This document shows, piece by piece, positions 45,601 to 62,247 of a stretch of DNA of 64,000 nucleotides. Made by a program: the position numbers and the translations under genes. Under the pieces are notes generated by a model. It made no database searches, had not been told where the DNA came from, and saw nothing but the letters and a program-made list of their open reading frames with translations. Numbering within the stretch: the stretch's first letter is position 1; every line of letters begins with the position of its first letter. The DNA is from Thermoplasmatota archaeon (GTDB lineage Archaea > Thermoplasmatota > Thermoplasmata > UBA10834): the NCBI GenBank assembly GCA_040751795.1, contig JBFMHR010000003.1, positions 289,597 to 353,596 on the forward strand. The letters run 5' to 3'.

Positions 45601-46884
45601 GCGTATCATGGACAGCTCGTCCCCAACATCCACCAGCCCCTCGCGGACCGCGTACGCATCCGCGGTCGCCTGGAGGTAGCCGTCCCCGTCAAGGTCCGCG
45701 TAGCCAGATCTCATCAGCAGGTCCAGAGCGGCCAAGGGGTCGAATGCGAGTTCCTCGATGTCGGCCTGCCAGTAGCCGGGCTGTATGACGGCTGTCGCCG
45801 GCTCGGCGAGCCCACTCAGTGTGACATCAGTGATATACGTCTTGTTGAGCGTCATCGCCAGCGCCTGCCTGACCGCGGGGTCGAGCAGGTGCGGGTTGCC
45901 CGTGCCGTAGGTGGAGGTCCGGAACGACATGGGTATCGCGTTGATCGCGACATCGCAGATGCCGGGCTCGGAGACAGCCTGCTTGATGACGTTGGCGGTC
46001 GCGTAGCTTCCGAGCACGTCGAGGTAGGTGTTGACGTCGCTCCCGACGGACACGACGTCGAGGTCGCCGTAGTTGATGGCGAGGGCGAGCGCGGTGTTGT
46101 CATAATAGACCGAGTAGATGATCCCGGGCACCGACACCGTCCTCTCGGCGCCGTAGTCCGCCTCTCCATGGTAGTTCGGGGCCTTAGCGAAGCTGTACCA
46201 CGACCCTTCGACCATCGCGTCGAACACGAAGGGGCCGCTGCCGACGAGTTCGTCGGGATCCATCTGGGCGAACGGGTCGTGCATCGGACCGTACACGTAC
46301 TCCGGCAGGATCGGGACGCCCTCGAGGTCGTCGAACAGGGTGGCCTTGGGCCATGCGGTGGTGATCGAGACGGTGAACCTGTCCAGGGCATCGACGTCCG
46401 TCACGCCGATGAAGTTGGACCTCCACGTGCCACTGTCCGGGTTATTCCTTATCAGGTTGAAAGTGAATTCGACATCGTCCGCGGTCAGCTGGCGGGACGT
46501 GTCGTAAGGGTCCGAGGCCGTCCTGAAGTACGCGTTCTGAGTGATGGCGATCTCCGTGGTCATGGAGCCATCTGGGTTCAGTGTCTGCAGCCAACCCATC
46601 GCCAGGTCCCCGACAGGGCCCTGCAAGTCCTCATCGTACATGAAGAGCGAGCTGTGGATCAGGTTGCACGCGACGTAGTCCTCGACAATCGTCAGTGTCA
46701 GCGGGTTCCAGTATTCGAAGTCCCCCGTCCACCCGACCATCACATATCCATCGGCGCGGGCGGCCGCATCCACGGCGTCCGCCCCCCCTCTCCCGTCCCC
46801 GGCGACCCTGGCCATGGACAGGCTCATCACGATTATCAGCGCTACGGCTGCAAGCCTAGACACTAGCAACTTCCGACCCGACAT
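39622..46884 (-). CDS. Giant surface protein: OppA/DppA-type SBP + PKD + clostripain (C11) peptidase + PPC/PKD repeats + C-terminal TM
   Basis: SBP family 5 motifs (LTADDVEFTF, GSGPF, VRQAL); WTVMVYLDGDNNLE, LWDHGGG and YDACLM (C11 His/Cys dyad); two DAYEPDD PPC-like modules; six (W/F)xFGD-type PKD units; carboxypeptidase-regulatory-like domain; TM + RKK tail. ATG 46884 has a GGAGGGG RBS. Confidence 0.88.
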   Translation of the reverse strand: MSGRKLLVSRLAAVALIIVMSLSMARVAGDGRGGADAVDAAARADGYVMVGWTGDFEYWNPLTLTIVEDYVACNLIHSSLFMYDEDLQGPVGDLAMGWLQTLNPDGSMTTEIAITQNAYFRTASDPYDTSRQLTADDVEFTFNLIRNNPDSGTWRSNFIGVTDVDALDRFTVSITTAWPKATLFDDLEGVPILPEYVYGPMHDPFAQMDPDELVGSGPFVFDAMVEGSWYSFAKAPNYHGEADYGAERTVSVPGIIYSVYYDNTALALAINYGDLDVVSVGSDVNTYLDVLGSYATANVIKQAVSEPGICDVAINAIPMSFRTSTYGTGNPHLLDPAVRQALAMTLNKTYITDVTLSGLAEPATAVIQPGYWQADIEELAFDPLAALDLLMRSGYADLDGDGYLQATADAYAVREGLVDVGDELSMIRLDAPDTDPTYYAVTTMWAADARDAGIGLVPRILSEGVMINMDWYKADYDIWVWHWGWGPEPIGSALSTWLTSEIVPGGLNCQMPMGPWWYDGTNYTDAPAEWDLRGPYSAYDQNLSMALETLDREDRKAIVDNLQQMIYDSHTEIPPFYDIGLYGYTDQWFVGWGDWESHPGRTVTSDLLWLWFDLVPRGDNLPPVFDVPLLPAYQATAGEVITFEVVVSDPEGDALLVNWSFGDGETLVTQVMGTSVPTTVRQSHVYSYAAAGLELEVRLHDGVQGHEVISLATVDVLGGSAGGRTVGYWWHDMFSEPFGEWWEWRYTYYGICEPVTTSYPYIYRTNGPDGPDAYHSSMQLNVMANDLPEVNMNDRPQFLPLLGEERGGLAVIDWRMQYLTGDQLEHYPDVISVWYDGWAVGLNGTTYLDSTAAKAVLGITDDGLDDFPSWWAANEAAFETAYLDWMMHEANERLDIFPMYEYAFTPLSFDLDAYSYDGNVVLQYDVVSWGMEALMTRWLHDAFMPTEWMFEDFVIHAEIGPDSADIDVDTAVVGAVFAWKDLETQQPSWAWRGMHQDYVPSSLTHPVSDFDAYEYLECLDMYAGSVSYGSMTPYEYTPAAFDLAEGEEMWFEWPDGPQSFVTDGGVDWFSTSEYMMASPYSEPAGYDLPGVTVDPLLNTLTFEGPIDVCSWSQAQTTHDYLESEWDRLGVLPYGLPWIEFAASTGPVEPACMMIEGLPDPVRVNQSLDIAVTVLDQYGYPFEGYTGTVTFSSSDTHACLPVDYTFTAADGGSHTFYDQTAFYTEGEQSLVVSDTADPLIQATAYTTVLPQAQGKQWTVMVYLDGDNNLEEVGLIDFVEMASAGSTEDVNIVVQFDRAPGYISTYGDWTDTRRFYVTEGQTPDPYNAVEVLGELDMGDPATLADFVAWASANHPAENYMLVLWDHGGGWDGAVCWDETDYYDALTMDEVEWALSAGVHLDVLGYDACLMAMAEVIYETREYVDYVVASEETVPWDGWPYDTIMGDLVADPLMTPAELSSAIVGRYMDYYGTYGIETMSAVDVGATAQMYDSLEAFAQELIAAMPDHEEVIRYCRANTTSFSDMSFIDLYDFAFEVGDIYTTDGLVAAADALWAAVGEAVVAEGHGDYRWDAHGVSIYFPDSGDWYWEHYEDVLDFTAETSWDEFLVQYLMADPDAYEPDDVYTEATELVEEVTQTHSLHTEEDADWFVFTLAADDNVSVRTQGTWGEFGVTTMYLFDEAGVPYDPLAWEEDGGYDYWATIEMYLPAGTYFASVESFYPIEGYDITLYVGDLPNMPPVISLGVYPWPVAGIESTFDATYSYDPDGWIVSYFWDFGDGTTAYEAVVNHTYEAPGWYLLFLEVVDDDGASTSFSYDLYVDEAAGPDAYEPDDTFDQASDIQLGETQEHSIAPGAGDVDWVTFTLDDATDVDIRTSFADGDWGDTVIALYDEGGVPDSWIAYNDDWTYDLSSRIVASLPAGTYWVQVWSYGYYNEIPSYYISLNDAGTMNEPPVAQFMWWPEQPAPGQVVLFDAWNSYDPDGWITQWHWDFGDNSTADGQWAEHAFDEVGDYIVTLTVVDDCGAQASASAMVCVRENAAPVPVLDWTPMAPAVGEAVLFNASGSYDPDGWVDYYVFDYGDGYAEGAPWSEMYHTYNAEGVYTVTLTVYDNNWLAGSVSAEIAVGGEGAPPVAVIAYEPSMPAVGDTVAFDASHSFDPDGAIVSYIWQFGDGDVAEGMTATHAYEHEGVYSVKLTVMDGDLMVDEDVVTITVASVPVPAMVYSPLDPDEGELVTFYAYGSYDEGGIVEYVWSFGDGTYASGWEAAHVFAEQGDYEVTLTVTNMYGVQASITQTVEVGKGDSGVKGVVMSESLRPLKNAVVEVRTSGGALVGSTLTDAQGEFMIRDLVSGVYDLTVSKNGYADFTVSITVGAGVLDVGTIVLLDDQGSGSAAAPSDEESLWLVGAAGLVGMAMLGGFLVSRKKGSEQ

Positions 46885-47032
46885 CTCTCGCCCCCTCCAG
46901 GAACGAATTGGAGAATTCATTACCACCTCGTGCTATATAAACGATGCCTGGGGATTCTCCGCAGTCTTCTCGCAGTCTCAAGGACCCCCGGCCGGAAACA
47001 TATAATGCCGTGATAGGCGTTACCACGTCCGC

Positions 47033-49065: not shown

Positions 49066-50505
49066 TCACCGCGCCGCCTTCGCGAGCTCCCGGAGGGCCT
49101 CCTCCTCGTGCTTGCGCGCCTCTCTCAGTATGCCTGCGCCCTTCCTCCTGTCCGGCTCCGTCATCCTCCCCTCGAAGCCGAACGGGAACAGGCGCGAGAA
49201 CTCCTCCATCCGCCCCGCGGCCCTGGCGTACGCCTCGGCCGACGAGGCGATGTGGCCCCTGGCCGCGGCCGCCGCCCTCGGGCCCAGCCGCTTCAAGTAG
49301 GTCGACGACATGGCCCGCCCTTCGGCGACGCACCCGGCGGTGTAGCTGTTGCCGAGGTAGTTCTGCTCCTCCTCCGGCACATCGGTCAGGACCCTCGCCC
49401 ACTCCTCGTACGCGTCCGGGCCCGCCACGTAGCCCTTCTGCACCGGCATCTCCGCGGCGGCGAACCTCGCGGCCCTCGACAGCACCTCGTCCACGAAGGC
49501 CCTGTCCTCGTGGGTCCGGGTGCCCTTGCTGAAGTAGAACGCGTCTATGCACCCGGGCGAGTCCAGGGCGTGGAACGGTACGGGCTCCTCCGCCTTCCCC
49601 TTCTCGTTGAGGGACCTGAACGTGCTGACTATGTACGACTGGCCATCGTAGCCGTTGACGATCCCGTACTCGGGGGCGGCGAGGCCGTAGATCACCACGG
49701 GCCTGTCCTCGTCCACCTCCCTCCGGACCCTGTCGAAGAGCTTCGAGACGACCTCGAGCTCCCGCGGGGTCGGCGAACCCGCCTTCGCCGGGTAGGAGTG
49801 CTGGTAGATGTAGGGCTCGATCCTCATGCCGAACGACTCGGTGGCCTTCAACATCTCCCTGAATGTCTTGACGTGCGTGGCGGTCGGCCCGGAGGGACAG
49901 GTCTGCCCCTTGGCCACGTTGATGATGAACGAGTACCCGCTCGCCCCTCCGACGTCCGTCGCGTCGCATCCGCTGCCCAGGGCCGAGAGGCACCCCGCCA
50001 TGGCCCCCGTGTAAGAGAGCCAGCATGGCTGGTATGCCGCCGGCCTGCTCACTATCCTCCTTCCTGCCCCTTCTCCCATGAAAGCCCTCCTGTACCTCGT
50101 CTGGAGGCGAGCCCTCTCCTCCTCCGCCCTCCGGGACGAGCTCATGTACATGGACACCGCCGCCCCGAGCAGCTCCCGCCCGTCCACCGTGAGCTCGTAC
50201 CGGCCCCGCTCCCTCCTCCTCACCAGCCCGTTCTCGACGAGCTTGGCGAGGTGGTTCGCGAGCGCGGTCTTCGAGAGCCCGGTCTTGGACATCATCGTCG
50301 AGAACCCACCGTCCCCCCTGAGCATCAGGGTGAGGATCATCACCCTCGCGGGATTCGCGGCAGAGCTCAGCAGTCCGGCGATGCCGTCCGAGTTGTCGAC
50401 CAGGGCCTCGTCCGCGCCCTTCTCCTTCCTTGGGGCCGTGTGCGCCGCCTTCTTCGTATATGAGACTGCCGCGCCGTTCTTAAAAGCTTCGCTAGGTGTG
50501 AACAT
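49066..50505 (-). CDS. ArsR-type wHTH fused to a BtrH/C39-peptidase-like domain (start uncertain)
   Basis: ANPARVMIL..LSKTALANHLAKLVENGLV HTH; GGASGYSF, CPSGPT, EYGIVNGYDG domain. Confidence 0.6.
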   Translation of the reverse strand: MFTPSEAFKNGAAVSYTKKAAHTAPRKEKGADEALVDNSDGIAGLLSSAANPARVMILTLMLRGDGGFSTMMSKTGLSKTALANHLAKLVENGLVRRRERGRYELTVDGRELLGAAVSMYMSSSRRAEEERARLQTRYRRAFMGEGAGRRIVSRPAAYQPCWLSYTGAMAGCLSALGSGCDATDVGGASGYSFIINVAKGQTCPSGPTATHVKTFREMLKATESFGMRIEPYIYQHSYPAKAGSPTPRELEVVSKLFDRVRREVDEDRPVVIYGLAAPEYGIVNGYDGQSYIVSTFRSLNEKGKAEEPVPFHALDSPGCIDAFYFSKGTRTHEDRAFVDEVLSRAARFAAAEMPVQKGYVAGPDAYEEWARVLTDVPEEEQNYLGNSYTAGCVAEGRAMSSTYLKRLGPRAAAAARGHIASSAEAYARAAGRMEEFSRLFPFGFEGRMTEPDRRKGAGILREARKHEEEALRELAKAAR

Positions 50506-50670
50506 TGGTTCCAAAAAACATGAACAACACGCCGCGGAGGGACGCGGGTATCGCGGTTCGCCCACCGGCGCAGGGCATCCTCCTTAAGTACGGAGGACTC
50601 TGTTCACCCCCGCTGAGGCAGGGCCGCCCTGAGGCGACTGGCCCTGGCCGCTCGGGGACCGGGGATTCGC

Positions 50671-52134
50671 ATGGGTTCTGGGAAGGGCACGCTCACCGTT
50701 CTGGAGAAATCGGACCTGGAGAGGATACACGGCGCGACCATGGAGGTGCTCGACAAGACAGGGGTCTTCGTCGACTCCCCCGAGGCGCTCGACCTGCTCG
50801 GCAAGGCCGGGCACAGGGTCGACAGGAGGACGAGGATAGTGCGGATGTCGGAGTCGTCCGTGAGCGAGGCGGTCAAGAGCTGCGCCCGCAACTTCAGGTG
50901 GCACGCGAGGAGCGAGAAGCGCTCGATGGACGTCGTCGACGGCCGTACCAAGTTCGGGCCAGGCGCCCAGTGCCTCTTCTACATCGACCCCGACACGGGC
51001 GAGTACAGGCCGTCGACCCTCCAGGACGGGATCAGGATCACCAGGCTGGTGGACGCCCTCGACACGTGCGCCGTCGGCTATGTCCCGGTGTACCCCGGCG
51101 ACGTCCCGACGGGCGCAATGAGCATGGTCATGTGGGCCACGAGCCTGATGCACACCTCGAAGCCGAGCTTCGGCAGCAGCGGCGACCCGGTCGAGTTCGA
51201 GCTGATGCAGCGGATAGTCGAGCTGATCCACGGGGACAGGGGGATGCTGGCGAAGAAGCCCCTGTTCCCGGGATACATCGACCCGATCAGCCCCCTGGGG
51301 CACGACAACGGGATGACCAACACGCTGCTCAGGCACGCGGAGAAGGACCTCCCCGTCTTCGTCATGGTCATGGCGCTCGCGGGCGGGACGGCCCCCGCCT
51401 CGCTGGCGGGGCTCCTGGTCCAGCAGAACGCGGAGATCCTCAGCTCGATAGCGATCGCGAAGTGCGTGACGAAGACCCCGAGGATAGTCTACGGGTCGGT
51501 CTCGTGCCCGCTGGACATGAGGTCCGGCATCGCGGCCACGGGGGCACCGGAGTTCTCGCTGATGGGCGTCGGCGCGGTGCAGCTCGCCAGATACTACGGC
51601 CTCCCGAGCGACATGGGCGTGCAGAGCGACTCGAAGGCGGTGGACGCCCAGACGTCGTACGAGAAGATGCAGTCCGCGGTGATGGCCACGCTCGCGGGCG
51701 CGGACATGGCGGAGCTCTTCATGGGCTCCACGGAGGCGTTCAACGCGTTCTCGCCGGTGCAGCTCATGATCGACGACCAGATCGCCTCGAGCGCAATGAG
51801 GATCGCCGAGGGGATCCGGGTTGACGACGAGTCCCTGTCGGTCGACGTCATCGGCAGGACCGGCCCGCAGGGCAACTACCTCAAGAGGAAGGAGACGCTG
51901 GCGCAGTTCAGGAGGGAGCACCGCATGCCCAGGGTGTCCGACAGGTCGACGAGGCAGCAGTGGGCCGCGTCGGGCTCGAAGCACGTCGAGGAGCGGGCCA
52001 GGGAGAGGATGCGCGAGGTCCTGAGGACGCACGAGCCGGAGCCGCTCGAGCCCGAGGTCAGCAAGGGGATCGCCCAGCTGGTGAGGGAATATGCCAAGGG
52101 GTTCGACCCGAGGCTGCTCGCCCTCTCGCGGTGA
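50671..52134 (+). CDS. Trimethylamine methyltransferase (MttB) superfamily, non-pyrrolysine
   Basis: IHGATMEVL, ISPL, GTAPASLAG.LVQQNAEIL, DMRSG..GAPE, SDSKAVDAQ, GPQGNYL; no internal amber codon. Confidence 0.88.
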   Translation: MGSGKGTLTVLEKSDLERIHGATMEVLDKTGVFVDSPEALDLLGKAGHRVDRRTRIVRMSESSVSEAVKSCARNFRWHARSEKRSMDVVDGRTKFGPGAQCLFYIDPDTGEYRPSTLQDGIRITRLVDALDTCAVGYVPVYPGDVPTGAMSMVMWATSLMHTSKPSFGSSGDPVEFELMQRIVELIHGDRGMLAKKPLFPGYIDPISPLGHDNGMTNTLLRHAEKDLPVFVMVMALAGGTAPASLAGLLVQQNAEILSSIAIAKCVTKTPRIVYGSVSCPLDMRSGIAATGAPEFSLMGVGAVQLARYYGLPSDMGVQSDSKAVDAQTSYEKMQSAVMATLAGADMAELFMGSTEAFNAFSPVQLMIDDQIASSAMRIAEGIRVDDESLSVDVIGRTGPQGNYLKRKETLAQFRREHRMPRVSDRSTRQQWAASGSKHVEERARERMREVLRTHEPEPLEPEVSKGIAQLVREYAKGFDPRLLALSR

Positions 52135-52774: not shown

Positions 52775-53512
52775 TTGATCGACATCCCGTCGTTGGACAG
52801 CTTGGAGAAGGGCCGCACGGGCCCCATGTTCCAGAGCAAGAAGAACCGCGTGTTCAGGTCCACAGTCGCCGGGGAGTCCTACGTGGTGAAGGTCTACAGG
52901 GGGGAATGGCGGGAGAGGGCGGCCGTCGAGCACGGCATCCTCGTGGCGTGCCGCGACAGGGGCGTCCCGGTCCCAGAGCCGCTCGCCCTGTTGCCCGGCG
53001 TGATCGTGATGGCCCCCGTGGAGGGCCGCATCGCGGGCGATGTGTTCGACTGCCTGTTCGCAGCATGCAGGGGGGACGTGCTCGGGTCCGAGCAGGAGAG
53101 GCTCGCGGACCTGCTCGTGCGGTGGCTGGCGAGCTTCCACGAGGCGTTCGGGTACGGGCTCGCGCGCGGCGACACCATCCTGAGAAACTTCATAGTCACC
53201 GAGCGGGGGGCGGTCGGCCTCGACTTCGAGGAGGCGGCGCGGGGGGACACCCTCTCCGACCTGGGTCAGCTATGCGCGAGCGCCATGATGGCTGACCCCG
53301 CGTTCACCGGGGCGAAGATTGCGTTCGCAAGGAGGCTGGCCGACAGGTACTGGGCCGTCTCCGGGCAGCGGAGGATGGGCGAGCTGGACGGAGCCGTCAC
53401 TGCGGCGATCCGCCACTACGCGCAGTTCAGGCCGAACGGTAAGGCCCTCCTCGCCCACGCGGACAGGATCGAGCGGGGAGAGGTCGTGGTCTCCTCCTCA
53501 GAGGAGCTGTAG
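52775..53512 (+). CDS. Protein-kinase-like phosphotransferase (APH/RIO-like)
   Basis: VVKVY, E..IL, VPVP, RGDTILRNF, LDFEEA, DLG; TTG start assumed. Confidence 0.7.
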   Translation: MIDIPSLDSLEKGRTGPMFQSKKNRVFRSTVAGESYVVKVYRGEWRERAAVEHGILVACRDRGVPVPEPLALLPGVIVMAPVEGRIAGDVFDCLFAACRGDVLGSEQERLADLLVRWLASFHEAFGYGLARGDTILRNFIVTERGAVGLDFEEAARGDTLSDLGQLCASAMMADPAFTGAKIAFARRLADRYWAVSGQRRMGELDGAVTAAIRHYAQFRPNGKALLAHADRIERGEVVVSSSEEL

Positions 53513-54253
53513 CCCGGGGCACCTGGTGACGAGGAACGCCAGGGCCAGGGCGGCCGCGGAGGCCGCGAGGAAGGCGACGTCGTGGGCGGTCATCTTCGTC
53601 GGCCTCAGCTGGGTCCTGGTCGCGTACATCCCGAACCCCCTGCCCGACATCGAGGCGGCCACGTAGTTGACCCTGGACATGGCGGTCATGAGCATCGGCA
53701 TGGTGGTGTACCTCGCGGACCGCACGATGCCCCTGAGGCTCCTGTCGAGCCTGAGTCCCCTGGTGACCTGCGCCTCCCTCACCGTCGCGAGCTCGAACCT
53801 GAAGACCGGTACGAACCTCATCGAGAGCGCTGGGAGGAACGCGTACCTGTAGGGGAACCCCGCGGTCGTTAGGGCGGAGGAGAGCTCCGCCGGCGTGGTC
53901 GTGGCGACGAATATCCACGACATCATTATCAGGCTCAGGAACTTGCCGGCGATGGTGAGGCCGTCCGCGACCCCGCCTGTCGTCACCTCGAACACGTACC
54001 AGCTCGCGACCTCGTCCCCCGAATGGTTGAAGACCACCTGCGCGAGGAAGATGGTGCCGGCGAACATGGCGATCCCCTTGGTCATCACCCCCCGCGCCCC
54101 GAACCTCTCCTTCGCGACGAGGACGAGCACTGCGAAGGCGGTCATGTGCACTGGGTCCGAGACCAGGAGGACCAGCACCGAGCACATCACGAGGAGCAAC
54201 GCCTTCGTTATGGGGTTCAGGCGGCCCCCTCCCGCGCCGGCCCCGGCAGTCAT
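53498..54253 (-). CDS. ecfT: ECF transporter T component
   Basis: LNPITK, TTTPAEL, MRFVP, AQVTRG, MSGRGF coupling motifs. Confidence 0.9.
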   Translation of the reverse strand: MTAGAGAGGGRLNPITKALLLVMCSVLVLLVSDPVHMTAFAVLVLVAKERFGARGVMTKGIAMFAGTIFLAQVVFNHSGDEVASWYVFEVTTGGVADGLTIAGKFLSLIMMSWIFVATTTPAELSSALTTAGFPYRYAFLPALSMRFVPVFRFELATVREAQVTRGLRLDRSLRGIVRSARYTTMPMLMTAMSRVNYVAASMSGRGFGMYATRTQLRPTKMTAHDVAFLAASAAALALAFLVTRCPGLQLL

Positions 54254-55713
54254 GCGCCACCCCCCGAGAAGAGGTCGTCCCACGCCCGCTCCGGGACGTC
54301 GGCCACTGGCCCGGACCTCACGACCCTCCCCGCGCCCATGAGGAGCACGTCGGTGCAGGTCCCTCTCGCGAAGTCGACGTCGTGTGTCACGACGATCGCG
54401 GTCTTGCCCGCGGCCCTGAGGCCGACTATCATGTCCCTGATGGCCGCCGCGTTCGCGGCGTCCTGCCCGGCGAAGGGCTCGTCCAGCAGGACGAGACTGG
54501 GACCGTGGGACGACGCCGAGGCGATGTTCACCCTCCTCTTCTGCCCGAAGCTGAGGCAGTGCGGGTGTACGAACCCCCTCACCGACTCCGCGGCCTCGAA
54601 CCTCCTCACCGCCTCTGCGGCCTCCTCCTTCGGGGCCCCGTAGTTGTCGGCGGCGAAGAGGACCTCCTTCTCGACCGTCCTCTCGAAGATCTGGTGGTTG
54701 GGATTCTGGAACACGAACCCCACGTCCCTGCCGATGGTCCATGGCTCCCCCCTCTTGTCCGCGCCGAACTCGTGCCCGAGGAGGCTGATCATCCCGGACC
54801 GGGGCTGGATGAGCCCTGTGAGGAGCCTGAGCAGCGTCGTCTTGCCCGCTCCGTTCTCCCCCATCAGGGCGACTATCGACCGCTCCGCGACCTCGAAGGA
54901 AACGTCCTCGAGGATGGTGACGCCGCCTATCTGGCAGGACAGCCCCTGGACCGAGACGGCCTTGACCTCCGACCGCTGGACCACCTGCGCGGGAGGACGG
55001 GGGGCGGCTCCGCCGACCAGGCCCGCGAAGCCCGGGGAGCCCCTGCCCATGTCCTCGACGAGCCTCCCCCTCTCCATGACCATCGCCCGCGACGCGAGGT
55101 GGGCGAACTGGCCGGGCCTGTGCTCGACGACGACTATGGTCATCTCCCTGGCCCGCCTCAGCGCGTCCACCGCCGCCACGACCTCGCGCACCGAGCGCGG
55201 GTCGAGGTTGGAGGTCGGCTCGTCCAGTATCAGGAGTTTGGGCCCGATGGCAAGCATCGAAGCTATCGCGACCTTCTGCTTCTCCCCGCCCGAGAGGGTG
55301 GTGAGCCTCCTGTCGACGAGGTGAGAGGCGCAGACGCTGGCGAGGGCGCTGTCGACTGCGTCCCGTATCTCCCCCCTCGGCAGGTTCAGGTTCTCGGGCC
55401 CGAAGGCCACCTCGTCCTCGACGACCTCCGTGCAGAACTGGGTCTCCGGGTCCTGCTGGACCATGCAGGCGACCTTCGACGCCGAGGTCGCGTCCTGGAA
55501 CGCCTGCCCGCCGATACTGACCGTCCCCTTCTTCTCCGCATGGATGATCTCAGGGATGAATCCGCAGACCGCCTGCATCGCGGTGGACTTGCCCGAGGCG
55601 CTCCCGCCCATGAGGAGGACGAACTCCCCGGGGCCGATGCGGAAGCTTATGCCGTCCACGGCCGGCTTGGACCGGTTCTCGTACCTGACGGTGAGGCCCT
55701 GGACGTCGAGCAT
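54250..55713 (-). CDS. ecfA: ECF transporter duplicated ATPase (A-A' fusion)
   Basis: GGSASGKST/QDPETQ/LSGGEKQ and GENGAGKT/FQNPNHQ/LSFGQKR. Confidence 0.92.
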   Translation of the reverse strand: MLDVQGLTVRYENRSKPAVDGISFRIGPGEFVLLMGGSASGKSTAMQAVCGFIPEIIHAEKKGTVSIGGQAFQDATSASKVACMVQQDPETQFCTEVVEDEVAFGPENLNLPRGEIRDAVDSALASVCASHLVDRRLTTLSGGEKQKVAIASMLAIGPKLLILDEPTSNLDPRSVREVVAAVDALRRAREMTIVVVEHRPGQFAHLASRAMVMERGRLVEDMGRGSPGFAGLVGGAAPRPPAQVVQRSEVKAVSVQGLSCQIGGVTILEDVSFEVAERSIVALMGENGAGKTTLLRLLTGLIQPRSGMISLLGHEFGADKRGEPWTIGRDVGFVFQNPNHQIFERTVEKEVLFAADNYGAPKEEAAEAVRRFEAAESVRGFVHPHCLSFGQKRRVNIASASSHGPSLVLLDEPFAGQDAANAAAIRDMIVGLRAAGKTAIVVTHDVDFARGTCTDVLLMGAGRVVRSGPVADVPERAWDDLFSGGGA

Positions 55714-56787
55714 CTACCTCACTTCGACCTTGGTCACGTCCTCTACCCAGTACGCCCCCTCGTAGTTGGCGGCGACGACCCTCAGCCTCCCGTCCTCGAG
55801 GGTCAGGATGAGCTCGCCGTCCCCGAGGACGTCGTCCATCTGGAAGACCGCGTAGTATCCGTCCGTTGCGGAGACCACGACCTCCGAGGCGCCGGCCTGC
55901 GGCTGCGCCTCCTCGACTACCCTCCAGAGGGACACACCTTCGTAGTCCCGCGGGTCGACATGGGTGACGCTCCCTATCAGCTCAGCGTTGACAACCACCT
56001 CGAACTCCTCGAAGTCGGTGTACCTGAAGGTGTACGGTTCCTCGACCAGCCCGGTGACCTCCGCGGTGCCCGCCTCCGTGACATCGTACACGACGGCATA
56101 GTAGTAGACGGCCCCGACGGTGAACGCCGCGAGGAACACCGCCATTACAGCAGCCGCGGCCCTCGCCCTGCGCTTGGCCGCCTTGCGGTCAGTCCACGCG
56201 GACTCCTCGACCGAGGGGTCGTCGACGACGATCCTCCTCTTGCCCAGGACCATCCCGGAGAACTCGAGCGACTCGAGCATCTCGAGGACCAGCCACCCGC
56301 CGAAGATGATGCCCGACGCCGCGGCGAGCATGCAGAGCATCGCAATGAGGACCGCGGGCACGCCGGCGAGGAAGAACGTGTAGAAGACCACGACGTTCGA
56401 TGCGGAGGAGAGCCCTCCGGCGACCGCGTAGAGCGTCGGGCTCCTGTCCTCCTTCGCCTTGTCCCTGAAGAGTATCAGGTCGGGAATGAGGCCCTGGACG
56501 AGGGAGACCGCGACTATGACGATCCCGTGGGTGCTCCCCATGAACAGCTCGATGACCCCCTTGAGCAGCCCGGTGGCCGTCGCCGCCCCCTTCTTGCGGG
56601 TTATCCCCAGGGCCAGCATTATCCATATGACGTGCAGGCCGGCCATGAACTGGCCGGCGCCGAAGGGCACCCCGATGATGTGGTTGACCATGTTGCCGAG
56701 GTACCCGATGTAGGTGGAGAGGACGCCCCCGAGCGCGGAGAGGAGTGCTATCGTCACGAGGTCCTTCGTCGTGAAGTGGTACTTCAT
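55714..56787 (-). CDS. ECF S component (YkoE-like) fused to a C-terminal sulfite-oxidase-type Moco-binding-like domain
   Basis: FTTKDLVTIALL, RKKGAAT, VQGLIPDL S-component motifs; an extra TM then YEGVSL..ATDGY..LRVV..WVEDV domain. Confidence 0.8.
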   Translation of the reverse strand: MKYHFTTKDLVTIALLSALGGVLSTYIGYLGNMVNHIIGVPFGAGQFMAGLHVIWIMLALGITRKKGAATATGLLKGVIELFMGSTHGIVIVAVSLVQGLIPDLILFRDKAKEDRSPTLYAVAGGLSSASNVVVFYTFFLAGVPAVLIAMLCMLAAASGIIFGGWLVLEMLESLEFSGMVLGKRRIVVDDPSVEESAWTDRKAAKRRARAAAAVMAVFLAAFTVGAVYYYAVVYDVTEAGTAEVTGLVEEPYTFRYTDFEEFEVVVNAELIGSVTHVDPRDYEGVSLWRVVEEAQPQAGASEVVVSATDGYYAVFQMDDVLGDGELILTLEDGRLRVVAANYEGAYWVEDVTKVEVR

Positions 56788-58274
56788 CCGAGCGCCTCCA
56801 CGGTTATCGTCAGGGCGTTCTTGACCCACCTCGCCCCCGCGGACTCGTAGACGTAGAACCCCTGCCCCTCGTACGACGTGAGCTCGCAGTCGGAGTTGCT
56901 GTAGACGCCGTCGTCGGGGAGCATCGCGAGCCTCGGCCCCTCCGTCCACTCGGGCGCGAGGACCCCGTCCATCTCCAGGGCGACCACCATCTCCCCCTGG
57001 AGGCCGAGCCAGGCCGCGTCCGGGTACGCGTTGAGGTACCCGAACTCCTGGAAGTAGCCGTCGGTGGACGTCACGGTGAGCAGGTCCCCCTCGGACATGC
57101 CGCCGACCAGGTCGATGAGGTCGCTGACTGGGACGCCCCTGTAGTGCCCCTCCCCGGTGATGCTGCCGTAGAGGTTCTCGTAGGAGGAGTCCCCCTCGAG
57201 CAGGTCCATGAGCATCAGTTCCTCGAAGGTCAGGTTGACGGATGCCCCGTCCCTGCCCACCACCTGGACGTAGGACGATGAGGGCGGGACGTACTCGACG
57301 TCGACCTTCTCGTAGGAGAAGCCGTCCCCGTCGACCGTCACGATCACGATGTGGTGCACCCCGTCGGTGAGGGTCCCGCCCGCGCCGCCGGTGATGAGGA
57401 AGTCGGTGCCCATCTCCCGCATCAGGTGGTACGCGTGGATGTGTCCCGAGAACACGGCGTCCACCCCCTCCTCGAGCACGAAGTCCTGTACCCGCCCGCA
57501 CGAGGCCGCGTCGAGGGTGTGGTTGTACTCGAAGGGGTCGTAGCTGGGCATGTGCGTCACCAGGACCTTCCTCTCCGCCCCCTCGTAGGCCTCCCTGAGC
57601 CACGCGACCTCCTCCTCCGACACCACCAGGTCGGACGAGTCGACGAAGGCGAATACGGTCCCTGAGTACTCGAAGCTGTACGCCTTCGGACCGAGCCTGG
57701 AGGCGTACTCATCGCCGCCGTCGGACTTGACGTCGTGGTTCCCGGGGGTCGACATGAACGGGACGGGCACGGACCCCATGGCCGCCTCGAACGCGTCGAA
57801 CTCGGAGGCCTGCCCCGACGGGGTCGTGTCCCCGCAGTGGACGATGAACTCGCACCCGGCCACCTCCTTGAGCGCCTCGGCGAGTATCTCGTTGTGTCCC
57901 TGGCTGTCGCCCATGACCGCGAACCTGTACGACTCCTTCTGCTGCGCCGAAAGCCGGAGCTCCGCCTCGGGCCCGTCAACGGTGCAGGTCACCGTCGTCC
58001 CGGTCCAGGTCGGGGTCCCAGAGTGCCCGGTGAGGGTCGAGCCGGGCAGGCAGTTCGTGAGGGTGACCTGCCCCTCGAAGTTCCCGAGGGACACCGCGAC
58101 CTCCGGCCCCAGGCACCTCACGGTGAGCGTGTCGGAGGCCTGGGCCAGCACGGCCCCTCCATCGACCTCCACGCCCCCCCAGAGCATCGGCAGGGCCAGG
58201 CCTGCCAGCACTATCGCCGAACAGGCCGCGACGGCCACGATGGCCAAGGTCCTGGGGTCGCGGATCCCTCTCAT
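56784..58274 (-). CDS. Membrane-anchored metallophosphoesterase fused to a Moco-binding-like domain
   Basis: GDSQ, HCGD, PGNHD, THMP, SGHIH calcineurin-like motifs; C-terminal YRGVPV..STDGY..GPRLA..WVKNA. Confidence 0.82.
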   Translation of the reverse strand: MRGIRDPRTLAIVAVAACSAIVLAGLALPMLWGGVEVDGGAVLAQASDTLTVRCLGPEVAVSLGNFEGQVTLTNCLPGSTLTGHSGTPTWTGTTVTCTVDGPEAELRLSAQQKESYRFAVMGDSQGHNEILAEALKEVAGCEFIVHCGDTTPSGQASEFDAFEAAMGSVPVPFMSTPGNHDVKSDGGDEYASRLGPKAYSFEYSGTVFAFVDSSDLVVSEEEVAWLREAYEGAERKVLVTHMPSYDPFEYNHTLDAASCGRVQDFVLEEGVDAVFSGHIHAYHLMREMGTDFLITGGAGGTLTDGVHHIVIVTVDGDGFSYEKVDVEYVPPSSSYVQVVGRDGASVNLTFEELMLMDLLEGDSSYENLYGSITGEGHYRGVPVSDLIDLVGGMSEGDLLTVTSTDGYFQEFGYLNAYPDAAWLGLQGEMVVALEMDGVLAPEWTEGPRLAMLPDDGVYSNSDCELTSYEGQGFYVYESAGARWVKNALTITVEALG

Positions 58275-58284
58275 CCTTCCCTCT

Positions 58285-60330
58285 CTAGGGCAGCCCCATC
58301 AGTTCGATGGTCGCCACCGACTTGATCTTCTCGGACCCGGTGAGCCACTCGCCCGTCAGCTTGAGCGGGTACTCGTCGTCCACCAGGAACTCCCAGTCGA
58401 GCATGAAGGCCACGACGAAGCTGTCGTTGTAGGCCACGTCCTCGATCGAGTATGTCTTGTAGTAGCCGTCGGAGGCGGTGACGTTCACGAGGTACCCCGT
58501 CTCAGCGAGCGTGTCGTTGAACTCGTAGTGGTACAGGTCATCGCCGTCGACCGCCGCGACCAGCACCCAGAGCGGTATGCCGGCGTAGGTGTGGTCGACC
58601 TCGAGGTCGTCCGTGAAGTTGTGGTACGCCGCGTGCCACCCGCCGTAGTCGGTGTAGTTGAACCACGGCCCGTGGAGGCCCGAGTAGTAGGTCGATGCGA
58701 ACGTCTCAGCGCTGATGGTCACCGTCTCGGTCCCTATGACGGTCAGCTCCCAGTCGGGGACCGCCTGCAGCCCCTCCAGGGATATGTTCACGACCTGGCT
58801 GACCTTCATGCTGCCGGAGAGCCAGTCGCCAACGATCCTCAGGGGCCACTCCTCGTCCGGGAGGGGCTCGCCGTCGAGCTTGTTGGCGACTATGATCGAG
58901 TCGTTCCTGGCGACCTGCATCGAGGTGAAGACCTTGTTGTACCCGTCCTCCGCGGTCACCCTCACGCTGTAGCCGGCGAACGCCAGCAGGTCGTTGAACA
59001 GGTACTCGGTGTCGGGCCCGTCGGCGCCGTCGACGGCGGACACGAGGGTCCAGAGCGCGACGCCGGTGTAGGTGTGCGTCCCGGTCTCGTTCTCGAAGGA
59101 CCAGCTGAGCGCGTGGTAGTCGCACGAGGCGACCGACTCGAAGGTCGGCCTGTCCATCTCGTAGGACGTCGTGCCGTTGATCTCGAGGACGTACTCCTTC
59201 ACGGGGGACAGGACGTTGACCGTCCTGACGTACTTCGCCCAGAAGTGCCCGTCGGTGATGGGGGCGCTTTCGTCGATGATGGCTATGCGCAGGACCATGT
59301 CTACCAGGGGCAATCCGTCCTGCGCATAGGCCACGACCATCGTGAAGTCATCCGTGCCGAGGGAGGTCCCCGCGGGGTCGTAGTACTCGAAGGTCCCGTT
59401 CTCGGCCTGGGAGTTGGAGTAGGTCATCGTGTAGCCGTCCGTGGCCACGACCTCGACCGAGTAGTCGTCCCCAGCGTACACCAGGTCGACGAGGTCCCTG
59501 AGGGCCACGCCGGTGAACTCGAAGGGGCCCTCGACCGTGCCTGTCGACTTGATGAAGCTGCCCTCGGAGGTCACGGTGTCCATGCTCTGGAGGTCGTACA
59601 TGGTCAGGTCGACCGTGGTCGCCCCCGCGACCGTGAGCACGACCTCGTGCTCCTCGAGCACGCCTATGGTTATGTTCGCGACCGTCTTGACCCAGAGCGA
59701 GCCAGCGGACGTCTGCATCTCGAACTCCGGCCCCTCGGGAGCGGTCGCGTTGAAGTCGTCGTTGCTGAACGCCTCGTCCGGGGCGAGGACCGCTATCATG
59801 GGCCAGTCCTCCACGGACATGAGGCTGCCGTTGAACTCGTATGCGAGGACGATCTGCCCCTGGACCGCGAGGTACTCGGTGCTCGCGTAGACCTGCTCGT
59901 ATGAGAGGTTCACGCAGTACCCGTCGGACGCGGTCACGGTCATCACGTCGCCCTCGGCCATCCCGCCGACGAGGTCCGCGATGTCCCGCAGCTCGACCCC
60001 GCCGTAGGTCCCGAGGCCCTTCCAGTTGTTGAACCTGTTCTGGTAGGAGGAGATGCCCTCGACGAAGTCCATTTCCTCGAGCGCCGCGAGGTCCACGGTC
60101 TCATCCTCCCCGCCCTTCCCCGTCAATGCGACGGAGAGGTCCGCGCCCTCGTCCTCCTCCTGGTTCAGGATGAAGTACCCCATGGGCACTGCGACCAGCA
60201 AAATCACCACGGCCGCCACGGCGGCCATCTTCATGGTGGGCGAGATCCCTGCCTTCTTAGGCGGGCTGACGCCCTCAGACCCGGTCTCCTGCTGTGAATC
60301 CGCACTCGTCCTCTCGGAGTCGCCACTCAT
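58285..60330 (-). CDS. Membrane-anchored extracellular protein with four tandem Moco-binding-like (SO/MsrP-fold) repeats
   Basis: N-terminal TM; four repeats of G(V/I)xL...A(S/T/E)DGY...(P)L(R/K)...V/IK.V. Confidence 0.78.
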   Translation of the reverse strand: MSGDSERTSADSQQETGSEGVSPPKKAGISPTMKMAAVAAVVILLVAVPMGYFILNQEEDEGADLSVALTGKGGEDETVDLAALEEMDFVEGISSYQNRFNNWKGLGTYGGVELRDIADLVGGMAEGDVMTVTASDGYCVNLSYEQVYASTEYLAVQGQIVLAYEFNGSLMSVEDWPMIAVLAPDEAFSNDDFNATAPEGPEFEMQTSAGSLWVKTVANITIGVLEEHEVVLTVAGATTVDLTMYDLQSMDTVTSEGSFIKSTGTVEGPFEFTGVALRDLVDLVYAGDDYSVEVVATDGYTMTYSNSQAENGTFEYYDPAGTSLGTDDFTMVVAYAQDGLPLVDMVLRIAIIDESAPITDGHFWAKYVRTVNVLSPVKEYVLEINGTTSYEMDRPTFESVASCDYHALSWSFENETGTHTYTGVALWTLVSAVDGADGPDTEYLFNDLLAFAGYSVRVTAEDGYNKVFTSMQVARNDSIIVANKLDGEPLPDEEWPLRIVGDWLSGSMKVSQVVNISLEGLQAVPDWELTVIGTETVTISAETFASTYYSGLHGPWFNYTDYGGWHAAYHNFTDDLEVDHTYAGIPLWVLVAAVDGDDLYHYEFNDTLAETGYLVNVTASDGYYKTYSIEDVAYNDSFVVAFMLDWEFLVDDEYPLKLTGEWLTGSEKIKSVATIELMGLP

Positions 60331-60467
60331 CGTATCCCAGCTCCTATATGCTCATTGAAGCATAACGCTGATGCCTAGCCCTGATATATAGATGTCGTCC
60401 GGCCGCCGGGCTCGGTCGAGGGCATGGTTGAAATCCTGGTCTGGCGTTCAGCTCTCGGGATGTCAGA

Positions 60468-61142
60468 ATGCAGATGCCCAAGGTCGTGGTTCACTCCGAG
60501 GTCAGCGCGGACGGGCGGATAGACTGGTTCAAGGCGCACGAGGACCTCTACTACGGCCTTCTCCCGACGTGGAACGAGGACGCGGCCCTCACAGGGATAG
60601 AGACACTCTTCGACCCGAGGACGGGCGTCACGAGGGAGGAGGGGCCCGTCAAGCCGCACGTGGTCGCCCCCGACGACAGGAGGCCTCTGCTGGTGGTCAC
60701 GGACAGCAAGGGCAGGGGGTACAACTGGCAGTTCTTCAGGGATTGGCCGTTCATCAGGGACGTCGTCGTCCTGGTCTCCTCGAGGACGTCCGAGAGCTAC
60801 ATACGGTACCTCGAGGAGAGGCACGTGGACCACATCGTGAAGGGTGAGGACAGGGTCGACCTCAGGGGGGCACTCCTCGAGCTGAACAGGCGCTACGGGG
60901 TCAGGACCGTGAGGACGGACAGCGGCGGGAGCCTCAACGGGGCCCTCCTCAGGGCGGGGCTGGTCGACGAGTTGAGCCTGCTCGTCGCCCCCTCCCTGGT
61001 GGGCGGGCTCTCCCCGAGGTCCTTCTTCAGGGCCCCGGACCTCGAGTCTCCCGAGGGGGTCATAGGGCTGGAGCTCTTCCACATGGAGAAGCTCAAGCAC
61101 GACGTGGTGTGGCTGAGGTACAGGGTGCTACACGGTCGATGA
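60468..61142 (+). CDS. RibD C-terminal/DHFR-family reductase
   Basis: VSADGRI, VVTDSKG, DSGGSLNGALLRAGLVDEL..AP. Confidence 0.85.
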   Translation: MQMPKVVVHSEVSADGRIDWFKAHEDLYYGLLPTWNEDAALTGIETLFDPRTGVTREEGPVKPHVVAPDDRRPLLVVTDSKGRGYNWQFFRDWPFIRDVVVLVSSRTSESYIRYLEERHVDHIVKGEDRVDLRGALLELNRRYGVRTVRTDSGGSLNGALLRAGLVDELSLLVAPSLVGGLSPRSFFRAPDLESPEGVIGLELFHMEKLKHDVVWLRYRVLHGR

Positions 61143-61224
61143 GCGGCTCGCCGGGCCGCCCCCGCAGGCACTGACGCAATCATAATGTAACCCCTCCCGC
61201 GTTCAAGGGAGGGGGGAGTCAGTA

Positions 61225-62247
61225 GTGCATTTCGGGAAACGCGTGCTAGCAGGGACCATAGTCTTGGTCATGGTCCTGGCGACGACGATGATGTCCATTT
61301 CCGCGCTCGGAGCGCGGGCGAGTTATGACTACTATCTGACGGGGGACGGGGCGGACGTCACGACGGATGTGACGCCCTGCCTCCTGCTAGCGGGTGGGAG
61401 CACCGACGTCGATGAGGCCATGAGGTGGATGATCGAGATGTCCGGAGGCGGGGACTTCGTGGTCATCCGATGCTCCGGGGAGGACGGCTACAACGACTGG
61501 TTGTACACGGACATCGGCGGCGTCGACTCGGTCGAGACCATCGTCTTCAACACTGAAGAGGCGTGCACGGACCAGTTCGTCCTCGACACGATCATGAACG
61601 CGGAGGCGCTGTTCATCGCGGGCGGGAACCAGTGGAACTATGTCAGCATGTGGAAGGGGACCCCGGTGGAGGACGCGATACACCATGTCAGGGACAAGGG
61701 GGCGCCGATCGGTGGGACGAGCGCCGGGCTCGCAGTGCTCGGCGAGTTCGCATACGCCGCGCAGAAGGGTTCGGTCGACTCCGTGGCCGCCCTCAGGGAC
61801 CCGTACACCCCGCGCGTGACGCTCTCGCAGGACTTCCTCGAGATGCCGAACATGGATGAGACGATAACGGACAGCCACTTCGCGGCCAGGGACAGGATGG
61901 GCAGGCTGGTGGCGTTCCTCGCGCGGATAGTCCAGGACGGATGGTCCACCGAGGCGTCCGGGATCGGGATCGACGAGGAGACGGCGCTCGGGGTCGAGAT
62001 GGACGGCACAGTCACGCTGTTCAGCTGGCAGCCGACCGGCTCGGCCTACTTCCTGCGCACGCCGGGCCCGCCCGAGGTCTGCCAGCCCAGGACTGAGTTG
62101 ACCTACACGGGCATCTCGGTCTACAGGATGTCCGGTGACGCGACCTTCAACATCGTGACCTGGGAGGGCGTCGGCGGGACCGAGTACACGCTGTCCGCGG
62201 TGGACGGGGTGCTGACCTCGGACCAGGCCGATGGCAGCATATACTGA
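61225..62247 (+). CDS. Secreted cyanophycinase-like S51 peptidase
   Basis: Signal peptide; LAGG, FIAGGNQ, GGTSAG (Ser), DSHFAARDRMGRL (His), GIDEETA (Glu). Confidence 0.85.
   Translation: MHFGKRVLAGTIVLVMVLATTMMSISALGARASYDYYLTGDGADVTTDVTPCLLLAGGSTDVDEAMRWMIEMSGGGDFVVIRCSGEDGYNDWLYTDIGGVDSVETIVFNTEEACTDQFVLDTIMNAEALFIAGGNQWNYVSMWKGTPVEDAIHHVRDKGAPIGGTSAGLAVLGEFAYAAQKGSVDSVAALRDPYTPRVTLSQDFLEMPNMDETITDSHFAARDRMGRLVAFLARIVQDGWSTEASGIGIDEETALGVEMDGTVTLFSWQPTGSAYFLRTPGPPEVCQPRTELTYTGISVYRMSGDATFNIVTWEGVGGTEYTLSAVDGVLTSDQADGSIY

Follow-up and report, generated by a model that had tools for sequence, protein, structure and literature searches.

A candidate ECF importer of molybdenum or tungsten pterin cofactor with outward sulfite oxidase-like domains in Thermoplasmata, Asgard archaea and Bacillota

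Results

Layout of the locus

The subject of this study is a five-gene operon in a 64,000-nucleotide stretch of DNA from a Thermoplasmatota archaeon (GenBank assembly GCA_040751795.1, contig JBFMHR010000003.1, positions 289,597 to 353,596), which we call the window. The genes, named A to E in the direction of transcription, were located by open reading frame (ORF) calls and translations; all lie on the minus strand between positions 53498 and 60330 (Table 1), and together they probably encode an importer of the energy-coupling factor (ECF) type that salvages molybdenum or tungsten cofactor (Moco or Tuco). They are packed tightly. Only 10 nt separate A from B, ATGA overlaps join B to C and D to E, and the TAG of C is followed immediately by the ATG of D. 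The original prediction, made from the DNA letters, had proposed five closely coupled genes of an ECF uptake operon here, and both these junctions and the Pfam and NCBIfam assignments confirm it.

Gene D has two ABC_tran domains (1.4e-55 in Pfam) and scores 324 bits against TIGR04520 (the ECF_ATPase_1 equivalog, cut-off 315 bits) and 314 bits against TIGR04521, below its cut-off of 330 bits. Gene E matches the CbiQ/EcfT family (PF02361, 2.7e-26; TIGR02454, 9e-11). Gene C matches PF09819 (6.9e-19, 68.6 bits against a cut-off of 25.2 bits), and EcfT and two EcfA ATPase domains are encoded beside this S component gene. The other Pfam matches are Oxidored_molyb (PF00174) in A (2.9e-16) and, below threshold, in C (3.1e-4, 20.8 bits against a cut-off of 24 bits), and Metallophos (PF00149) in B (5.6e-17).

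Genes A and B each encode one N-terminal hydrophobic helix. In C, a basic linker and a long extra helix (residues 195-233 of the model) connect the S core of six helices to the PF00174-like module, and with this arrangement the C-terminal module should face outward. The predicted helices and topology support the earlier proposal that all these modules lie outside the membrane. The proteins predicted to be exported are strongly acidic, with 16% D+E against 4% K+R in A.

Table 1. Positions in the window of the operon genes, the repeat modules and the leader
Feature	Position	Strand	Description
Gene A	58285-60330	-	681 aa; putative surface protein with N-terminal membrane anchor and four SUOX-like repeats
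Repeat A1	59653-60144	-	gene A residues 63-226
Repeat A2	59206-59652	-	gene A residues 227-375
Repeat A3	58762-59205	-	gene A residues 376-523; holds conserved Cys403
Repeat A4	58288-58761	-	gene A residues 524-681
Gene B	56784-58274	-	496 aa; N-terminal helix, beta-sandwich, calcineurin-like metallophosphoesterase (~116-325), one SUOX-like repeat
Gene B repeat	56787-57278	-	residues 333-496
Gene C	55714-56787	-	357 aa; YkoE-like ECF S component (1-~190), basic linker, 7th helix (~195-233), SUOX/PruR-like domain
Gene C repeat	55717-56076	-	residues 238-357
Gene D	54250-55713	-	487 aa; fused double ECF ATPase (EcfA-EcfA')
Gene E	53498-54253	-	251 aa; EcfT/CbiQ transmembrane coupling component
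Leader 5' of gene A	60331-60467	-	intergenic; AT-rich stretches by eye only

The repeat module has a truncated sulfite oxidase fold

Six copies of one module, 120-165 residues long, are present, as had been proposed: A has four of them, and B and C each end in one. The six copies share 20-46% pairwise identity, and the G..., DGY and late G positions are invariant in the repeat alignment. We modelled C by AlphaFold2 with 92 homologues (predicted local distance difference test, pLDDT, 82.6) and compared structures by VIA-align and Foldseek. In the VIA-align comparison, residues 235-357 of the model match SorA with a Z of 14.5 (122 residues, 2.5 Å, 28% identity), with which Foldseek concurs; the Z is 13.9 for plant sulfite oxidase, 13.3 for PruR (root-mean-square deviation 2.3 Å, 114/146 residues) and 11.5 for YedY. 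When a profile was built from the six repeats, its matches included SorA (7e-8) and PruR (3e-4). By sequence as well as by structure, the domains are closer to SorA and SoxC (28% identity) than to PruR (18%). The stretch that holds the Mo-ligating Cys hairpin in SorA is about 19 residues shorter in C, and in the model the extracellular domain of C is a truncated sulfite oxidase (SUOX) fold like that of PruR. That the motifs of the module resemble the Moco-binding fold of sulfite oxidase and MsrP had been suggested at the outset, and the modelled fold and the PF00174 match of A both agree with it.

The enzymes of the SUOX family (SorA, SoxC, plant and chicken sulfite oxidase, YedY/MsrP) are thus the best matches in sequence and structure, and the repeats have in common with them an I.G.V start, GV.L and PLRL, as well as the G..WVK motif seen in SorA and SoxC. 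Unlike these enzymes, the repeats stand in tandem or are fused to non-redox proteins, and none of A, B and C has a Pfam match to a haem, cytochrome b5, Mo-co_dimer or YedZ-like domain. Matches to the NCBIfam model 'GEGP motif-containing diheme protein' just before the GV.L motif (2e-8 in A and 6e-3 in C) lie far below its cut-off.

The residues kept in the module can be set beside those of PruR, a signalling partner of a cyclic di-GMP (c-di-GMP) enzyme; PruR binds small pterins of the monapterin type, with the pterin ring sandwiched between Y104 and W160 and hydrogen-bonded by N102 (PMC11194511). The six-repeat profile aligns the invariant DGY to N102-D103-Y104 of PruR, with Asp in place of Asn102. 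Across 30 archaeal and bacterial S-component domains, three features are invariant: a Glu of the shortened hairpin, the DGY, and a Trp within G..WV that lies some 10 residues before the end. A Trp about 10 residues from the C-terminus is found in C (W347, invariant), B, A1 and A2, and is missing from A3 and A4; judging from its position, it may be the equivalent of W160 of PruR.

The Mo-ligating Cys of the enzymes had been reported as absent from those repeats that could be aligned by eye. This holds for the copy in C, which has no Cys at all and an invariant Glu in the shortened hairpin. It does not hold for A3, where Cys403 is kept in 47/49 aligned orthologues and in 29/29 selected archaeal and bacterial copies, within the motif F-E-S-x-A-(S/T)-C that lies 18-27 residues before G..LW; nor does it hold for B, in which Cys463 is invariant in 65/65 sequences. 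Cys139 of A is not conserved in the orthologue alignment. When the A3-type Cys was compared with the Cys of the enzymes, a single sequence gave no relevant match, and the alignment of a 29-sequence profile was reliable in its C-terminal half only. If Cys403 does occupy the Mo-ligand position, it would fit the capture of a metal-loaded cofactor. The description of the modules as catalytically dead Moco-fold domains is therefore too strong in its 'dead, Cys-less' part, as two repeat types keep a Cys, while the idea of a non-enzymatic capture role gains support.

The S core and the phosphoesterase

In VIA-align, the S core of the modelled C matches YkoE of Bacillus subtilis (5edl, with the molecule name HMP/thiamine permease YkoE, HMP being hydroxymethylpyrimidine) with a Z of 21.4 over 186 residues at about 20% identity, and a hidden Markov model comparison gives an E of 1.2e-9; with ThiT, RibU, FolT, PanT and BioY the Z is 9-12.

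The model of B (pLDDT 90.7; predicted template modelling score 0.83) consists of a helix, a beta-sandwich, a metallophosphoesterase and the SUOX-like module. The metal-ligand motifs GD123, GD149, GNHD178-181, H241 and GH278xH280 are invariant in 65 sequences, and motif I has Gln where many members of the family have His. Rv0805, GpdQ and purple acid phosphatases are the nearest folds (Foldseek E 1e-11), and E. coli UshA is also among the matches.

The host keeps the enzymes that use the cofactor

The host assembly (2.05 Mb, 53 contigs) has a completeness of 92.8%, and the names of homologues likewise assign the host to the Thermoplasmatota archaea. Profile searches of it gave no match for MoaC, MoeA_N, the C-terminal domain of MoaA, MoaE or the MoCF domain (MogA/MoaB/MoeA). 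The host genome has no match either for a binding protein of the ModA/WtpA type (PF13531). The same searches were positive in 11 to 14 of 14 control genomes. It has three full-length genes of the AOR family, a formate dehydrogenase gene (FdhA, 826 bits against the 666-bit cut-off of TIGR01591), a second gene of the DMSOR family and a MobA-like gene, whose best NCBIfam matches are all MobA models, below their cut-offs. Its PF00174 matches are confined to the operon.

Carriers of the class mostly lack MoaC and MoeA

We surveyed 251 genomes of the class, the host included, using the identical sample in every search. The fused S component was found in 40 of them: in 20/31 genomes of family f1, to which the host belongs, in 17/32 of f16 and in one genome each of f2, f3 and f12. 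AOR is present in 40/40 carriers. Among the 136 AOR-bearing genomes, both MoaC and MoeA are missing from 34 of the 40 carriers and from 24 of the 96 non-carriers, the other 72 non-carriers having at least one of the two. A correlation of the operon with missing moa and moe genes, which had been put forward as a check, does exist in this class. The controls behave differently, with ThiC in 40/40 carriers and FolP in 39/40, so that the loss is specific to MoaC and MoeA. Two unpublished non-carrier genomes, G098 and G212, have MoaC, MoeA_N and FolP; they are included in the totals of 137/251, 135/251 and 244/251 and among the non-carriers with synthesis genes, and our conclusions are independent of both.

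The contrast recurs within narrower groups. In genus g2, intact MoaC is found in 0/3 carriers and 9/11 non-carriers, with MoeA in 11/11 non-carriers; in family f16, MoaC is found in 3/17 carriers and 11/15 non-carriers. In f2, the carrier G102 lacks MoaC and the non-carriers G069 and G165 have it, and in f3 the carrier G016 lacks it and the non-carrier G001 has it. MoaC and MoeA are also missing from the carriers G137 and G144, each of which is a single contig. MobA-like genes were found in 3/3 further f1 carriers checked and in 0/2 f16 carriers. PF13531 gave a weak match in 3/3 non-carrier relatives and none in the two closed carriers, so the metal-binding protein was possibly lost together with the Moco pathway.

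MoaC and MoeA_N matches occur in the same 6/40 carriers (G246, G094, G027, G129, G040 and G185). Two of these MoaC genes are decaying: the match of G185 (C4:48611-49027) is a pseudogene with five in-frame stops, and that of G040 (C1:608214-608465) is a C-terminal fragment beside an apparently intact MoeA. The 24 AOR-bearing non-carriers that lack both genes (G008, G017, G021, G028, G033, G038, G053, G072, G089, G097, G104, G111, G118, G125, G132, G139, G146, G153, G167, G174, G181, G221, G227 and G245) belong to families f9, f18, f22 and f17, with a few incomplete f16 and f3 genomes, and must have another solution; G021 and G033 even hold a canonical SUOX gene of 345 aa. Off the operon, stand-alone PF00174-like ORFs of 191-218 aa (E 1e-20 to 1e-25) were seen at G240:C67:5419-5826, G123:C1:21085-21492 and G102:C5:27589-27930. 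Two of the three also match the C-terminal domain of the S component, and they may be free PruR-like proteins.

The operon is conserved in Asgard archaea and Bacillota

With one genome scanned per species, relatives of the fused S component turned up at 234 loci. The best 80 of the 234, which we analysed, fall into three groups: 53 loci of Thermoplasmata/Thermoplasmatota, 4 of Asgard archaea and 23 of Bacillota. Among the Bacillota are Syntrophomonadaceae, Syntrophaceticus, Pelotomaculum, Desulfosporosinus and the cultured Thermovorax subterraneus DSM 21563 (locus L104). The gene order of repeat protein, phosphoesterase-repeat, S-repeat, ATPases and T is kept across the three groups, and the phosphoesterase is present in 66 of these best 80 loci (46/53, 3/4 and 17/23, respectively). 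Thermovorax has a divergent one that resembles purple acid phosphatases. Of 12 loci from the class survey, 10 have A, B and C in order (two are cut by a contig end) and two are without the phosphoesterase. Whether the operon is conserved had been raised as a question, and the answer is that it is.

AOR was found in 25/26 carrier genomes outside Thermoplasmata and in 65/66 across all carriers examined. Bacterial repeat proteins additionally have SLH, Big_2, BspA-type leucine-rich repeat, Fn3-associated and copper-amine-oxidase-N domains, which are surface or adhesin modules.

Bacterial homologues follow Moco/Tuco riboswitches

In 10/23 Bacillota loci, the first operon gene is immediately preceded, on its own strand, by the Moco/Tuco aptamer (Rfam RF01055), with scores of 56-78 bits against a gathering score of 36 bits. 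These are L086, L090, L093, L094, L098, L104 and L110 and, after upstream extension, the genomes of L105, L106 and L107; in most of the remaining bacterial loci the contig ends before the start of the operon is reached. In the three extended loci, the aptamer precedes a 1670-aa repeat-protein ORF by 117 nt in L112, an ORF of at least 1559 aa by 143 nt in L111, and a co-directional run of surface-protein genes in L113. Stem P3 is missing in 6/6 aptamers inspected, and the riboswitch class lacking P3 has been linked to the tungsten cofactor by Regulski et al. (PMC2408646).

In Thermovorax, the phosphoesterase gene follows the aptamer after 13 nt. Behind it come the genes of a PF00174-repeat protein that also has three SLH domains, of a further PF00174 protein of 184 aa and of the fused S component, and then an ATPase/T gene of 800 aa. 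In L098, TupABC-like genes and a MOT1-family transporter stand first behind one aptamer, and the phosphoesterase and the ECF genes follow them. As the ECF set stands beside TupABC-like and MOT1 genes there, its cargo is unlikely to be an oxyanion. Rfam scans of the window and of 25 loci from bacteria and Asgard archaea found no riboswitch for thiamine pyrophosphate (TPP).

Several other features were seen in these bacterial loci. L098 has a further Moco/Tuco riboswitch (10483-10603), with EcfT ahead of it and a dockerin-domain protein and an ORF of 1129 aa behind it, and in L099 one lies on the opposite strand (7946-8061, minus) and faces an ABC ATPase gene. Giant riboswitch-led surface proteins of Bacillota combine PF00174-like domains with BspA-type leucine-rich repeat, Big_2, Fn3-associated, GEVED and copper-amine-oxidase-N modules (L112:1886-6898, L111:2-4678, L113:1-4901 and L104:822-2147), and a MotA/ExbB-like gene is found among the surface-protein genes of L113.

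Neighbouring features in the window

Upstream of the operon and divergent from it is a gene with a RibD_C domain, of the pyrimidine/pterin reductase family (60468-61142, plus strand). Beyond the other end lie an MttB-family (trimethylamine methyltransferase-like) gene (50671-52134, plus strand; 5.9e-87) with an uninterrupted frame of 487 aa and, adjoining it, the gene of a protein with an ArsR-type helix-turn-helix (49066-50565, minus strand). The ORF finder also reported an open frame of 2434 aa at 39622-46926 (minus strand); the window is GC-rich.

Discussion

Here, we have described an operon that couples a complete ECF transporter to six SUOX-like domains and a phosphoesterase. The fold of the domains and the residues that they keep, the loss of the Moco pathway in carriers that retain AOR, FdhA and MobA, and the place of the bacterial homologues in a riboswitch regulon together suggest that the most likely cargo is a Mo/W pterin cofactor. 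We argue that the operon is probably an ECF importer that salvages Moco or Tuco. That an ECF importer with Moco-fold capture domains scavenges such a cofactor was the central idea of the original prediction, and the fold, the phyletic pattern and the Bacillota riboswitches speak for it.

How such an importer could work is suggested by its parts. The outward, truncated SUOX-fold domains on A, B and C would bind the pyranopterin. The phosphoesterase of B would turn unsuitable forms of the cofactor into the form that is transported, most plausibly the dinucleotide forms (molybdopterin guanine or cytosine dinucleotide, MGD or MCD) into the mononucleotide form of molybdopterin (MPT), which is the one used by AORs. 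That B cleaves MGD or MCD is suggested by analogy and is consistent with its matches to phosphodiesterase-like folds. The ligand may then be handed over from A and B to C in a kind of relay, and the YkoE-like S core, EcfT and the double ATPase would carry it into the cell as a dedicated (group I) ECF-type ABC importer. Inside, it would serve the enzymes of the AOR family and, after MobA-dependent guanylylation, formate dehydrogenase as well. Because metal insertion is beyond hosts that lack MoeA and MogA, the cargo most likely arrives already loaded with metal; we infer both the identity of the ligand and the travelling of the metal with the pterin.

Several observations weigh against this interpretation. 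The case is built from sequence, predicted models and co-occurrence, and the nearest solved relative of the S core is the thiamine-binding YkoE. In the window, no riboswitch was found at the Rfam gathering threshold over its whole length, and at E<=10 the region 60200-61300 gave only matches at chance level. The kinship of the surveyed genomes inflates the Fisher 2x2 p of ~1e-10, which thus overstates the case; there are about four taxonomically separate contrasts, counted with no tree. Since MoaC and MoeA are often adjacent in relatives, their absences within one genome are not independent. Four archaeal carriers (G246, G094, G027 and G129) have intact MoaC, and the 24 AOR-bearing genomes of the class without MoaC, MoeA and the operon show that the operon is not the sole answer to 'orphan' molybdoenzymes. 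Outside Thermoplasmata, MoaC is present in 19/26 carriers, that is in 19/22 bacteria and 0/4 Asgard archaea. In bacteria the system would therefore add to synthesis and not always replace it, and we reject a strict replacement of Moco synthesis. Moco is also very labile; its sensitivity to oxygen is in keeping with the lineages of the carriers, which are those of strict anaerobes. We found no precedent for a prokaryote that takes up the cofactor intact and with its metal. Finally, the truncated cleft of PruR is thought to be too small for Moco in the account given by a 2026 review (PMC13259868).

If not Moco or Tuco, the ligand could be a simpler pterin, such as one of the neopterin or monapterin type, a precursor of folate or methanopterin, or an oxidised breakdown product of MPT, which is imported or only sensed by repeats that act as in PruR. 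The fold and the Tyr of the DGY match PruR, a binder of small pterins, the hairpin of the Mo-ligand Cys is shortened in the same way, and what the 2026 review says of pterin transport across membranes leaves it unexplained (PMC13259868). We nevertheless consider a simpler pterin unlikely, because the genes whose loss tracks the operon are moaC and moeA, the riboswitch of the bacterial operons is of the Moco/Tuco class, the domains are nearer to SorA and SoxC than to PruR, and Pfam finds no DcpA-type partner in the operon. FolP/Pterin_bind is kept in nearly all carriers and in 244/251 genomes, which indicates no link to a loss of folate-type pterin synthesis; salvage of a folate-type pterin is unsupported.

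It is also conceivable, though improbable, that tungstate or molybdate is imported and that the SUOX-like domains are anion sites. Tuco/Moco riboswitches commonly control tungstate and molybdate transporters (as stated in PMC2408646), and the host and the closed carriers G137 and G144 are without PF13531, of which non-carrier relatives have a weak match. The metal would be useless by itself, as 34/40 archaeal carriers lack both MoaC and MoeA and the host is in addition without MoaA-C, MoaE and MogA/MoaB. Moreover, oxyanion uptake would be redundant with the TupABC-like and MOT1 genes under the same L098 riboswitch, the S core is of the YkoE type for organic vitamins and not of the CbiM/NikM type, and a phosphoesterase would have no role in it.

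The S core itself invites comparison with an ordinary YkoEDC-type importer of thiamine or HMP, in which the extra domains would bind the aminopyrimidine and the phosphoesterase would dephosphorylate TPP, thiamine monophosphate (TMP) or HMP phosphate (HMP-P). The PF09819 match, YkoE as the nearest structure and the layout of S, double ATPase and T all agree with YkoEDC, and JGI names several homologues thiamin/HMP permease. The identity to YkoE is only about 20%, ThiC is present in every carrier of the class and shows no relation to the operon, and the riboswitches found are of the Moco/Tuco class in place of TPP. We reject thiamine or HMP as the main cargo on the grounds of ThiC and of the TPP riboswitch missing from the window and the loci scanned and regard it as very unlikely; that the S component binds thiamine or HMP independently of the repeats, a case named beforehand as one that would overturn the proposal, is without support. 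It is scarcely credible that the repeats act outside the cell as Mo/W enzymes, such as SUOX-like reductases or oxidases that rely on the Cys conserved in the A3-type and B repeats, next to a functionally unrelated transporter. They align over about 120 residues as against about 165 in the enzymes, Pfam shows neither haem nor cytochrome nor dimerisation domains in their proteins, and the copy in C lacks the Cys. Tight gene coupling and the fusion to the S component speak for one shared function, and hosts unable to make Moco would need to import it regardless.

The proposed Moco/Tuco importer can be compared with several known systems. YkoEDC of B. subtilis, a group I ECF transporter, has the same family and fold of S component and is likewise a dedicated module, whose single operon includes a fused double ATPase and a CbiQ-type T. 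YkoE binds thiamine and belongs to a TPP-riboswitch operon. Unlike it, C has a seventh helix and a SUOX-like domain, two further repeat proteins are predicted to be exported, the bacterial homologues are under the Moco/Tuco riboswitch, and there is no link to thiC. By the textbook definition, an ECF transporter has no extracytoplasmic substrate-binding protein or domain. The chief departure of this operon would be its six SUOX-like domains, which are predicted to face outward and of which one is fused to the S component.

The PruR proteins of Agrobacterium and other Proteobacteria (7kos, 7kou, 7rkb, 7kom and 7kp2) have the same small, truncated and exported SUOX fold (Z 12-13, ~114/146 residues) and the pterin-stacking Tyr, which lies in N-D-Y in PruR and in DGY here. 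The operon domains differ in being joined to one another as well as to transporter and phosphoesterase parts, in having Asp for Asn, and in having an invariant Glu (C) or a Cys (A3 type) in place of the Pro-Trp motif. The operon partner of PruR, a DcpA-type GGDEF/EAL protein or a sensor kinase, is absent here, and the partners are ECF components and the phosphoesterase.

For the phosphoesterase, the closest parallel is with the exported metallophosphoesterases of the NadN/UshA type, which act in the salvage of NAD and FAD by processing dinucleotide cofactors before uptake. Like them, B has the calcineurin-like fold with all metal motifs, is predicted to face outward and is encoded beside an importer, while it is nearest to Rv0805, GpdQ and purple acid phosphatases and is fused to a pterin-domain repeat. 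TupABC, WtpABC and ModABC share the Moco/Tuco riboswitch regulon in Bacillota, and the L098 operon may share a transcript with its Tup-like genes; these are type I oxyanion importers that depend on binding proteins, whereas the operon encodes an ECF transporter of the YkoE type in genomes that are unable to build the pterin. The dietary uptake of Moco by nematodes, a subject of work on Caenorhabditis elegans and Haemonchus contortus, is likewise a life on the cofactor of others without full synthesis; it takes place in a eukaryote, for which a transporter of this kind is not known to be defined.

'Orphan molybdoprotein' organisms, several hundred in number, have been reported that have Mo/W enzymes and no Moco pathway, and often no Mo transporter; in the parts of that paper that deal with the matter, the answers offered are unknown synthesis genes or metal-free enzymes, and not uptake (Peng et al. 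2018, PMC6147048). We found no ECF transporter for Moco/Tuco or a pterin in the open-access literature, where the supplementary tables of Regulski 2008 and Peng 2018 may list these genes or organisms. The uptake of finished Mo/W cofactor by a prokaryote would be a new process, while the machine itself would be an ECF transporter with added capture domains. Whether finished W/Mo pterin cofactor is a public good that is traded in anoxic habitats, with this operon as its first dedicated importer, equipped with surface capture domains of Moco-domain origin and an exo-phosphoesterase for converting foreign forms of the cofactor, is to us an even question.

If the operon does import Moco or Tuco, whole lineages of Thermoplasmata and Asgard archaea could drop the Moco pathway and the metal transporters and still keep AOR and formate dehydrogenase, which would explain part of the 'orphan molybdoenzyme' genomes and an unassigned member of the Moco/Tuco riboswitch regulon. 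It would also mean that ECF transporters are able to recruit extracytoplasmic binding domains, and Mo/W metabolism would have to be inferred differently from metagenome-assembled genomes. The proposal is directly testable, as a cultured carrier, Thermovorax subterraneus DSM 21563, exists. Were it true, a new vitamin-like exchange would take place in anaerobic communities, among syntrophs, sediment Thermoplasmata and Asgard archaea.

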